The notes under the pieces are model-generated. The model saw only the letters and a list, made by a program, of their open reading frames with translations. It did not search any database and was not told the DNA's origin. Of a stretch of DNA of 50,048 nucleotides, positions 45,211 through 47,043 are shown piece after piece. Each line of letters begins with the position of its first letter. Positions within the stretch are counted from its first letter, which is position 1. The stretch is taken from positions 1 to 50,048 of the forward strand of contig CAMTWD010000009.1 of the NCBI GenBank assembly GCA_947085365.1. Reading direction: 5' to 3'. A program made the translations under genes and the position numbers. The DNA comes from an uncultured Nitrospirota bacterium. Its GTDB lineage: Bacteria; Nitrospirota; Thermodesulfovibrionia; Thermodesulfovibrionales; CALJEL01.

Positions 45211-45261
45211 CATTTTAACTAAGCCTTATTATGCTTATCTATATGCGAAAGATTAATTCCC

Positions 45262-45279
45262 ATAGGTGAGGCTAACAGA
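45262..45279 (+). repeat. Possible degenerate family-A copy just upstream of the tnpB-like gene
   Basis: ataggtgaggctaacaga. Confidence 0.35.
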
Positions 45280-45301
45280 AGATTAAAGAGTTAAAGCAAT
45301 T

Positions 45302-46987
45302 ATGAGTAATATATGCATAATGGCTAAAAAGAGTAAATCTAACAATAATTTGATTCTGTCTTACGAGTTAACCTTACCTCAGAGGATATACTGTCAGCTT
45401 GATAGACTTTTTATAGTATTTAAACATGGAGTTAGGACTTGTCTTGAGGTATTCTGGAATGAAGCAATTTTTAACCTTTTAGGGCAAGACAAACAACAGA
45501 AACAGTCAGCCTGTGCAGTATTGAAGTCATTGTTTCCAAATACTGGGATAAACCTGGGATATTTGCCAAGCCGTGTTTTAAGAAACATCTTAGAGCAAAC
45601 TGGAGAGATCATCAGAACCCAGGGTAACAGAAAAAAGATATTTGACTACATAGTAAAGGACCCTGAAGTCAGAGTCCAGGAGGACTCTAAGGTTATAGCT
45701 CAGCGATTAGGTGAAAGCACCTTAATGGTTTTAAATGTCCAGAGGCAGATTCAGAGGTTAATGAAAAAAGATGCATTGATAGCAGATTACTTCAAAGTTA
45801 CAAGACCTTCTTTTGATGGCAATGTTGTGATCACAACTGCTGATGATAATATAAAAACAGGGCAGTTCAAAAGACTGATCGTAGATCTTCAGAAGAATCT
45901 GGTCATTTTCAAAATTAAAGTTCCCGATAGAGGCACATGGAAGTGGATTAAAGTAAGACATTTTATCCCTGACAACTTAAAAGTGGCTCTGCTTACTGGG
46001 GGACAGGTTCAAGCTCCGCTAATTAAAAAAATCACTTTAAAAAGTGGATTTACTATTTACAAATTGGTAATACCAGTAGAATTTAAATTGAAATCCCTGG
46101 ATACAACTGTTTTAAGAGTTTTTTCAACAGATTTAAGTCCATCAGAGACCAGGCTTGCAGTAGCAGTGATAGTAGATAAAGAGGGATATTCCAGACCTGT
46201 TTTCTTTAAGGCCACCAGACTGATAAAAAAGATAGAACGAATCTTAACTGAAATAAGCCATTTAGAAGCTAAAATTGACAACATAAGGTTTCAGTTAACA
46301 TATACAATCAGTAAAACCCACAGGGATCTTCTTAAAGTGAGATTAAATCATCTATTTCAGGAACAGAAACTGAAGTGGTACAAAGTAAAAAACCTCAGAA
46401 AAGGGATTTTAGAGATTTTTACAAATGAAATTATAACACTGGCAAAAATTTACGGTTGCACTCACATAGCTATAGAGAATCTAAAATTTAAAAACTTACC
46501 TTCATGGAGAAACTCTAAATTCAGAAGACACTTTTCAGAGTGGTTCTACAGCAAAGTTGAAACAAAACTTGAATACAAAGCAAAAAAACATGGTTTAAGG
46601 TTTATTACAGTATCCAGCTATAAAAACTCCACAATTTGCCATAGTTGTGGTAAAGAGACAAAACCAGATGGACTAACTTTTGTCTGCTCTCACTGTGGTG
46701 AAAAATTTGATAGAGACTACAATGCCTCAGTCAACATAGGGATAAAGGCTTTGAACCAGCTTTTGAAAAAGAACAATAAAGATATAGTGGGCGGGACAAA
46801 ACCTGTGGTCTATATGACTGAGGGTAATCCCGGCAGGATTCCGTTTCGTCGGGGGCTCGCCCACTTTAAGGCTCCTCTTACAGTGTTTTCTCTTTTAACT
46901 CTCATGGCTTATATTAAAGTGGTGGAGATCTCCACTTTGAAGTTCAGAAATTTAACTAAATGGATAAGTTTGGATAAAAGCGGTTAG
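45302..46987 (+). CDS. TnpB/Cas12-like RNA-guided-endonuclease-family protein (IS200/IS605 OrfB type), solo, 561 aa
   Basis: Split RuvC: FSTDLSPS (D277), HIAIENLKF (E392), [11 protein letters not shown] (D470/D472). Zinc ribbon CHSCG...CSHCG between RuvC-II and RuvC-III. AT-rich, with codon composition unlike its neighbours. No tnpA is adjacent. Confidence 0.85.
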
Positions 46988-47043
46988 GAAAAATGAAACG
47001 GTATCAGATTTATGATACCCAAAATGAATCAGGAGGTGTAATT

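Follow-up and report, generated by a model that had tools for sequence, protein, structure and literature searches.

Which kind of element has brought the gene of an enlarged TnpB/Cas12-like nuclease directly in front of the glycolytic genes gap and pgk of an uncultured Nitrospirota bacterium, and does this nuclease belong to a transposon or to a CRISPR system? The stretch analyzed (contig CAMTWD010000009.1 of assembly GCA_947085365.1, positions 1 to 50,048; in the following the window) carries an open reading frame (ORF) of 561 codons, here called tnpB, which the initial annotation had placed in a grey zone, with TnpB on one side and miniature Cas12 or further proteins derived from TnpB on the other. 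With a probability of roughly 0.8, positions 45194-47001 are instead a non-autonomous copy of an IS607-family insertion sequence (IS), which has lost its transposase gene tnpA and comes from a lineage of thermophiles whose TnpB is unusually long. The extent first proposed (45211-47043) had to be moved at both ends, as the element starts 17 nt earlier, inside the last codons of the upstream DUF1015 gene, and stops at 47001. All parts of the element behave as the known TnpB/IS607 paradigm predicts.

The three RuvC motifs and the zinc ribbon reported earlier were all found in the tnpB product (FSTDLSPS with D277, IAIENLKF with E392, the D470/D472 motif and CHSC...CSHC), and D277, E392, D470, D472 and the four cysteines are invariant in an alignment of 24 sequences comprising the tnpB product and its 23 closest database relatives. 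When solved structures were searched by profile, D472, the second Asp of the DRD motif, fell opposite the Asp in the ADFNASQNI and ADYNAARNI stretches of Cas12f. As we take these stretches to carry the RuvC-III catalytic Asp, D472 is its counterpart. The public gene call at the locus starts at Met7 and yields 555 aa. The sole Pfam match is PF07282 (Cas12f1-like TNB) with 62.6 bits at a cutoff of 26.3, and the AF2 model (predicted local distance difference test, pLDDT, 76.4) gave full-length fold matches in Foldseek to AsCas12f (5e-14) and to the IS607 TnpB of ISFba1 (8IAZ, 2.7e-11), further matches being OsCas12f, Cas12m2 and Fanzor2. Evidently, the assignment to the TnpB/Cas12 superfamily was correct, and the protein is a TnpB-type RuvC nuclease with an intact catalytic triad and zinc ribbon, for which nuclease activity is predicted.

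With respect to these matches, a miniature type V CRISPR effector (Cas12f2/Cas14-like or V-U) whose array is lost or distant has to be considered. The length of the protein is near that of Cas12f2 (524 model positions), the Cas12f2 model (NF049972) gives the longest NCBIfam alignment (aa 132-487), and the best PDB matches in both sequence and structure are Cas12f (9nzq, 6e-17; 8j12, 5e-14). The score of this alignment is 72.8 bits, however, against a cutoff of 450, so that the comparison with the Cas12 subtype profiles does not return a Cas12f2. Ten relatives from the profile search described below (two of the core family, eight of a wider tier) were scanned in the same way; none of the ten reached the Cas12f2 cutoff (39-107 vs 450 bits), and two passed the NCBIfam model guided_TnpB (P0168 with 128 and P0185 with 117 bits). 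The tnpB product is therefore no Cas12f2, but a TnpB of large size that has a certain affinity to the Cas12f2 model. As noted from the beginning, the gene stands alone: no CRISPR-like array was found in the 50-kb window and no cas genes among the neighbours of tnpB, which are housekeeping genes, and its family possesses transposon ends, a TnpA partner and a predicted 3' omegaRNA instead of repeats. A CRISPR effector is thus extremely improbable.

Relatives were gathered by a word-indexed search of 5.8 billion proteins, which returned only about 24 clusters of close relatives (42-52% identical, 500-545 aa), then a gap, and then ordinary TnpBs at E ~1e-6. When 1.84 billion representatives were searched exhaustively by profile, the core family likewise proved small, with about five 50%-identity clusters at E < 1e-120; outside of it lies the wider tier of 500-590-aa proteins matching profile positions ~3-480 but not the tail. 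The enlargement relative to TnpBs of about 400 aa is hence real, but it is not exceptional, being the norm of the protein's own family. Named members occur in Hydrogenobacter thermophilus TK-6 and "bacterium HR13"; in a scan with one genome per species the copies were mostly found in metagenome-assembled genomes (MAGs) of Aquificota (Aquifex, Thermocrinis, Persephonella, Hydrogenobacter), many of them broken off at contig ends. RefSeq labels the H. thermophilus homologue "RNA-guided endonuclease TnpB family protein", and literature searches for a family name, a named IS or the H. thermophilus accession found no description. The family is a little-described thermophile clade of large IS607-associated TnpBs.

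Some loci of this family (our numbering, L001 onwards) deserve separate mention. Hot-spring contigs L035 (1720-1734 on the + strand and 3393-3407 on the - strand) and L062 (165-179, and 2492 onward) hold two family copies within a few kb, inverted or in tandem, which fits with the family loci ending at contig edges, as multi-copy elements break assemblies. Short contigs L009, L013 and L015 from Nanobdellati/Aenigmatarchaeota MAGs carry members near-identical in their right ends to Aquificota copies; these DPANN-binned members could reflect binning contamination or cross-domain transfer.

The type of the element was read from genomic context. Directly upstream of tnpB, the loci L001 (H. thermophilus), L025 (the closest relative of the window tnpB, 52% identical), L027, L029-L031, L036, L037 and L046 encode a protein of about 200 aa with MerR-type helix-turn-helix (HTH) and resolvase domains, i.e. 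a serine recombinase with the architecture of IS607 TnpA. The recombinase gene and the tnpB start overlap by 10-20 nt, and the recombinases are 76-78% identical between elements whose TnpBs share only ~45-50%. Because complete members sit behind this serine recombinase, the family is of the IS607 type. Other members form a series of tnpA decay and have tnpA genes with internal deletions (L026 retains aa 1-53 and 136-198, L018 aa 1-19 and 175-198) or only 3' remnants of tnpA (L010, L014), and the gene is gone entirely from L005, L007, L009, L011, a large hot-spring metagenome subgroup and the window. The solo subgroup (including L035, L038 and L039), which has the same fusion of the left end (LE) to tnpB, occupies at least 16 distinct sites as judged by the left flanks. 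In the window the best tblastn match to TnpA has an E of 0.2 and no TnpA is encoded, while the LE contains short nucleotide remnants of the deleted tnpA 5' and 3' ends ('ATATGCGAAAGATTAAT', 'GAGTTAAAGCAATTATG'); the copy was consequently classified as a tnpA-deleted derivative and not as an autonomous IS607 element. The H. thermophilus TK-6 copy with TnpA (L001, 1051-5106) is located at the margin of a prophage-like region with a terminase, and the same stretch is also catalogued as a viral contig (L094; IMG/VR UViG 650377953_000002).

Comparison with the other copies also provided both ends of the element and its flanking motif. Over 22 distinct insertions the left flank has G at positions -3, -2 and -1 in 20/22, 22/22 and 21/22 cases; at position -4, A was counted 12 times and G 7 times. 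The flanks thus suggest RGGG as candidate transposon-adjacent motif (TAM), and the final GG of the window flank (45192-45193) is presumed to be the crossover dinucleotide of the serine recombinase. The LE begins with "CTAACAGC..." or "nnnnnAACAGC..." in the same 22 independent insertions, the window junction reading TTTAAAGGGG|TATCAACAGCTTCTTGACATTTTAAC, and a consensus 'AACAGCACCTTGATTT' is found in the LEs of relatives at equal spacing from the GG(G) flank. Promoter-like boxes are likewise conserved in position (TTGAyw-17-TATnnT, e.g. TTGATT-17-TATGTT).

At the right end (RE), the family loci share the sequence 'GGAAAAATGGRACGG' 14-15 nt downstream of the stop codon, and the RE there reads "...GATAARTATGGTTAG GAAAAATGGRACGG" and ends with ...ACGG; the window has "TAG GAAAAATGAAACGG" at 46985-47001. 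No consensus emerges from the 30 distinct right flanks beyond a near-absence of G at +1. Copies encoding the identical 510-aa TnpB P0018 are shared up to "TAA GGAAAAATGGGACGG" and then diverge into two right flanks. Across the family about 20-30 independent insertion sites were counted, and in the window as in the family a GGG at the left flank together with a CGG at the RE-guide junction corresponds to the published IS607 rule. With an IS607 family of the same length and with defined ends at hand, the grey-zone placement has largely lost its basis; the catalytic residues are not lost. An LE starting only after the DUF1015 stop codon, prompted by the protein tail KGVSTAS resembling that of homologues, was ruled out by more than 20 independent LE junctions.

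Two relatives differ at the RE. In L025 (3640-3700) a divergent 3' terminus GAGAAAGAGGTTAAAGG stands where the canonical GGAAAAATGGRACGG is expected, TnpA being intact and the RNA junction described below scoring 92 bits. The right end or the pseudoknot strand of this locus may have degenerated or may belong to another type. Bacterium HR13 (L005 7756-7770, equal to L006 2316-2330) has an orphan second RE terminus GATAAATACGGATAGGAAAAATGGAACGG located 166 nt downstream of its own RE. Since the junction covariance model found no second match in L005, it seems to be a short piece left behind by a further copy.

The insertion site could be rebuilt. In two Thermodesulfovibrionales genomes, L097 and L098, the same gene order as in the window (DUF1015, gap and pgk, with ATP synthase c/a before and AdoMet decarboxylase behind them, both on the - strand) occurs without the element, and DUF1015 and gap are only 29 nt apart; the element thus sits in a cluster that is otherwise conserved. 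Joining the left flank (to 45193) and the right flank (from 47002) of the window gives ...GAATACTCATTTAAAGGGGTATCAGATTTATGATACCCAAAATGAATCAGGAGGTGTAATTATGGCT, which compares with ...GAATATTCTTTTGATAAAGGGGTATCACTTTAAGATACCTGAATTTTTGAGGAGGTATAATTATGGCT at the uninterrupted site of L097 (in short, TTTAAAGGGGTATCAGATTTATGATACC resembles GATAAAGGGGTATCACTTTAAGATACC). The rebuilt DUF1015 C-terminus reads ...FEYSFKGVSDL* versus ...FEYSFDKGVSL* in the homologue and its native stop codon (47013-47015) lies 28 nt before the gap ATG. As the joined flanks restore a homologue-like C-terminus, the insertion occurred four codons before the DUF1015 stop; the LE now supplies a new end, VSTAS*, with the stop inside its TTGACA box. 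A crossover at the first GG (45190-45191) was considered and dropped, because the homologue C-termini and the L097 site fit 45192-45193, giving ...KGVSDL*.

The DUF1015 stop is overlaid by a hairpin GGTATCA-N6-TGATACC (window 47000-47019), and similar hairpins GGTATCACTTTAAGATACC and GGTATCTGTACCGTGATACC are present in L097 (~5255-5275) and L098 (~5255-5280). The IS entered at the 5' foot of the hairpin, and its terminal GG keeps the stem. The host DUF1015 protein has its best named relatives (~70% identical) in Thermodesulfovibrionales (Nitrospirota). The first impression of an AT-rich, compositionally foreign island holds, with a GC content of 0.357 in 45194-47001 versus 0.447 in the rest of the window, a deficit of 9 points. 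From the Nitrospirota host, the Aquificota-centred family and this deficit we infer that the element was acquired horizontally.

Beyond the protein, the 3' region of the element is predicted to encode an omegaRNA scaffold of about 215 nt, made up of the last ~200 nt of the ORF and 14 nt past it. The last ~230 nt of 33 non-redundant elements were aligned, and RNAalifold unveiled a three-way junction (P1 to P3, Table 1) in the 5' part. A pseudoknot was spotted by eye, the loop CCGUYCC of P3 being complementary to the final seven bases of the element (GGRACGG). With the pseudoknot included, 95.2% of 862 cells are paired, compared to 31-44% after displacement of the 3' partners by 1-3 columns. Changes on both sides occur in 17 of 27 pairs, and none of 500 shuffles reached the observed values. 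The pseudoknot helix itself is 97.8% paired over the 33 sequences, and two of its positions show a replacement of C-G by U-A, in one case only in the window. The window junction alone folds with -38.4 kcal/mol (z = -3.84). A covariance model of the junction (R1) has a single match in the window (46781-46870, 84.5 bits) and 45 matches in family loci, including some sequences outside its training set, and no match in outgroup TnpB loci or in uninterrupted host loci. Rfam returned no scaffold family, RAGATH-18 included, either at the gathering threshold over the whole window or at E up to 10 over 45100-47100.

In analogy to the right-end element RNAs (reRNAs) of TnpB/IS607 systems, the guide is placed in the host DNA directly behind the element, with an assumed length of 16-20 nt. 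This putative guide has a single match in the window and covers the last four codons of DUF1015, its native stop and the start of the original DUF1015-gap spacer; in the uninterrupted site of L097 it is contiguous with AAAGGGG. Since it lies in the hairpin over the DUF1015 stop, the guide would be partly self-paired.

Table 1 Features of the IS607-family element and its surroundings in the window (coordinates in nt; RNA features and promoter predicted).
Feature	Position	Strand	Remarks
Left flank AGGGG	45189-45193	+	host DNA, DUF1015 codons K-G; matches the RGGG insertion-site/candidate TAM motif
Whole element, window copy	45194-47001	+	1,808 bp, tnpA-deleted
Left end (LE)	45194-45301	+	carries 'TATC AACAGCTTCTTGACATTTTAAC', promoter-like box, tnpA remnants
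Promoter-like site TTGACA-17-TATGCT	45207-45235	+	inside LE; best + strand match in 43600-47300; putative function
tnpB ORF	45302-46987	+	561 aa; RuvC-I D277, RuvC-II E392, Zn ribbon C446/C449/C462/C465, RuvC-III D472
omegaRNA 5' three-way junction	46786-46864	+	RNAalifold
P1	46786-46795 / 46855-46864	+	three-way junction helix
P2	46801-46804 + 46807-46810 / 46816-46819 + 46822-46825	+	three-way junction helix
P3	46829-46834 / 46848-46853	+	three-way junction helix
Pseudoknot 5' strand CCGUUUC	46841-46847	+	in P3 loop; pairs with 46995-47001
Scaffold 3' half	46865-46986	+	codes residues ~522-561; protein-like codon pattern; helices predicted at 525-558
RE terminus 'GGAAAAATGAAACGG'	46987-47001	+	terminal CGG abuts guide
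Pseudoknot 3' strand GAAACGG	46995-47001	+	last 7 nt of element
Putative guide TATCAGATTTATGATACCCA	47002-47021	+	host DNA; placed by analogy with TnpB/IS607 reRNAs; length 16-20 nt assumed
gap (GAPDH)	47044-48042	+	ribosome-binding site GGAGG at 47033-47037
pgk	48052-49275	+	follows gap

The scaffold also accounts for the tail of about 80 aa past RuvC-III, which the initial annotation had correctly seen but had listed as a protein extension. As the scaffold begins at about codon 496, the tail is the segment of the ORF that overlaps the omegaRNA scaffold, residues ~496-561 being co-encoded with it. All insertions and deletions within the scaffold (15, 6 and 24 nt) have lengths divisible by three. 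The entropy at codon position 3, divided by the mean of positions 1 and 2, is 1.15 for codons 495-520 (the junction), 1.80 for codons 521-556 and 1.9 for the core. Both the indels in threes and this split between codon positions indicate a dual-coding region. In the AF2 model codons 495-520 have a pLDDT < 50, and helices are predicted at 525-558. The tail thus consists of an RNA-constrained, probably disordered linker (~aa 495-520) followed by a protein-constrained C-terminus with conserved helices (~aa 521-558).

The following course of events would be in line with these features and with the established biology of TnpB and IS607. Horizontal transfer may have brought the element in, with TnpA integrating it by GG crossover at a GGG site, and its transcripts would start at the LE promoter or come from DUF1015 by read-through. 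TnpB would process the 3' part of its own mRNA to the omegaRNA, with the adjacent 16-20 nt of host DNA from 47002 as guide. The resulting ribonucleoprotein could cut any copy of the unoccupied target (the TAM GGG followed by the guide sequence, i.e. GGG + TATCAGATTTATGATA...), leading to retention or homing of the element, whereas the CGG at the right junction would shield the occupied site from being cut. Further transposition would need TnpA in trans.

As for the host operon, the 56 nt between the tnpB stop and the gap ATG (46988-47043) reported earlier were reproduced. Between tnpB and gap no terminator-like site was found on the + strand, and the relatives leave no room for a promoter of gap's own in this spacer; gap-pgk therefore appear to rely on transcripts that cross the element or start in it. 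Expression of gap-pgk most likely depends on such transcription, through the element or from within it.

This arrangement, a solo and co-oriented tnpB immediately upstream of an essential operon, with a guide that would correspond to the DNA lying 23-42 nt ahead of the gap ATG, might also be expected of a domesticated TnpB, i.e. a TldR-like regulator or another host-co-opted RNA-guided protein that controls gap-pgk through its flank-derived guide. However, a guide equal to the flank is a property of every IS605/IS607 copy. The catalytic triad is intact, unlike that of the nuclease-dead TldRs; transposon ends are present, the genomes of L097 and L098 keep the same gene order without the insertion, and the family has a TnpA partner and is found inserted at ~20-30 sites unrelated to one another. 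Domestication is accordingly considered very unlikely.

Copies of ISXfa1 and IS607 are inserted at GGG, the TAM of ISXfa1 TnpB is GGG and not CGG, and the CGG beside the reRNA guide spares intact copies from cutting (bioRxiv 10.1101/2023.08.09.552727). Like ISXfa1 (Xylella) and IS607 (H. pylori), the window element lacks terminal inverted repeats, sits at a GGG with CGG at the RE-guide junction, and has a predicted scaffold that overlaps the tnpB 3' end, contains a pseudoknot in its core and takes the right flank as guide; its complete relatives have the serine-recombinase TnpA directly upstream. Unlike these two, the window copy is devoid of tnpA, and its scaffold lies almost entirely within the ORF, the RE being 14 nt past the stop. 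Furthermore, the protein is ~130-170 aa longer than the cited IS607 TnpBs (ISFba1, 387 aa; NCBIfam model, 431). ISFba1-type IS607 TnpBs use G-rich TAMs, AGGAG or GAGGG (PMC11061315), and the window element resembles ISFba1 TnpB (PDB 8IAZ; PMC11061315) in overall fold, in its G-rich flank (RGGG here) and in scaffold pseudoknots, but the reRNA of ISFba1 derives from RAGATH-18, and the window element has no Rfam match and another scaffold architecture.

With ISDra2 TnpB (IS200/IS605; PDB 8BF8/8H1J) the RuvC-TNB-RuvC core (profile E 6e-10) and an omegaRNA with a pseudoknot beside the guide are shared, whereas ISDra2 has a Y1 (HUH) TnpA, the TAM TTGAT, 408 aa and another N-terminal half. From Cas12f/Cas12f2 (Cas14) the element differs by the missing CRISPR array, the transposon ends, the TnpA partner of its relatives and a scaffold-guide RNA at the 3' end. 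In having tnpB and both ends but no transposase, and in its widespread solo copies, it is similar to IS1341-type 'tnpB-only' elements (a category of PMC10691335). Here, however, the solo state is visibly a recent deletion of an IS607 element, with tnpA 5' and 3' remnants fused in the LE.

Several observations have to be set against the assignment to a tnpA-deleted IS607 copy. The protein is at most 52% identical to every relative; the multiple sites that indicate mobility are those of relatives, exactly this protein being on record from one locus, and TnpA is missing from the window. The tnpB product stays just below the cutoff of guided_TnpB (NF040570; 92.5 vs 100 bits) and far short of that of IS607_TnpB (48 vs 350 bits), a model that covers only its RuvC-II to RuvC-III part. 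No convincing helices were detected by RNAalifold or an all-against-all column scan in the ~120 nt of the scaffold 3' half, which, according to the codon analysis, is due to the protein constraint on this part. A 7-nt direct repeat GGTATCA occupies both junctions of the window copy (45192-45198 and 47000-47006), and as it spans both ends, the exact junction is ambiguous by a few bases. Recombination by an IS607-type serine recombinase should produce no target duplication; the repeat may be due to chance or to microhomology between target and end. Finally, the omegaRNA, the TAM, cleavage and the transcription of gap have all been deduced from sequence.

Part of these observations would also be compatible with an inactive relic, that is, a decaying IS fragment with an ORF open by chance, a dead nuclease and a dead guide RNA, and only a polar or promoter effect on gap-pgk. 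Besides the missing TnpA, the single known locus and the long divergence, insertions specific to the window protein in the N-terminal region of the 24-sequence alignment fit with decay, as does the closest protein relative, L025, with its already degenerate RE terminus. Yet the 561-codon ORF is still open in DNA of 36% GC, the catalytic residues and zinc ligands are all intact, and so are all scaffold helices of the window copy, including a window-specific compensatory U-A pair in the pseudoknot and the three-way junction with its z score of -3.84. We hold a relic to be distinctly unlikely.

A more far-reaching proposal is likewise held to be unlikely. According to it, thermophile large TnpBs (~530 aa) form a distinct IS607 lineage, in which the scaffold lies wholly inside the coding sequence and the junction/pseudoknot, a disordered linker and a selected C-terminal helical module lacking in ordinary TnpBs are co-encoded; the stranded window copy would then be an obligatory transcription and RNA-processing unit of gap-pgk, with omegaRNA maturation setting the 5' end of the glycolytic mRNA.

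Under the preferred assignment to a tnpA-deleted IS607 copy, what was a "hypothetical / zinc ribbon protein" beside core glycolysis genes becomes a fully delimited IS607 derivative, with left end, right end, predicted guide RNA, candidate TAM and rebuilt empty site now defined. The apparent C-terminal extension of this TnpB clade turns into a guide-RNA overlap, and the clade offers a tidy case of overlapping RNA and protein constraint. Knowledge of how TnpB or IS607 elements work is not changed by this. What is added is a clade of larger TnpBs from thermophiles, for which the scaffold model is clear and GGG the likely TAM; such proteins could be of interest to those seeking heat-stable compact editors. 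Of modest interest are a scaffold that lies almost completely inside the ORF, a tail constrained both as RNA and as protein, and the position directly in front of gap-pgk.

Apart from the element, several repeats were noticed in the window. A dispersed 16-18-nt repeat, GTGGCGAGGTAACAGT, occurs at 26 sites with at most 2 mismatches. Both strands carry it, many copies are intergenic, and they are often arranged in tandem as pairs or triplets with a spacing of 18-22 nt (e.g. 4336-4372(-), 13173-13206, 18368-18401, 19254-19293, 37179-37214, 40738-40774, 42043-42097(-) and 43752-43767). It is not part of the IS and looks like a genome-specific family of repetitive extragenic palindromes or regulatory sites. 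A 47-nt G+C-rich palindromic element, GGGGGTCTCACAGGGGGGAACGAATGTTCCCCCCTGTGTACCCCCGA, is present three times (24901-24947, 40286-40331 and 40774-40820), two copies being perfectly complementary to each other, and its copies often adjoin GTGGCGAGGTAACAGT repeats. Clusters of the short repeats AGGCTGAAGGC / GCCTTCAGCCT at 2346-2500, 17731-17828 and 18272-18375 form imperfect palindromes with A/T-rich centres. Two inverted-repeat arms of ~190 nt at 3109-3499 and 13391-13781, ~10 kb apart and 71-72% complementary, are probably paralogous coding sequence in opposite orientation.

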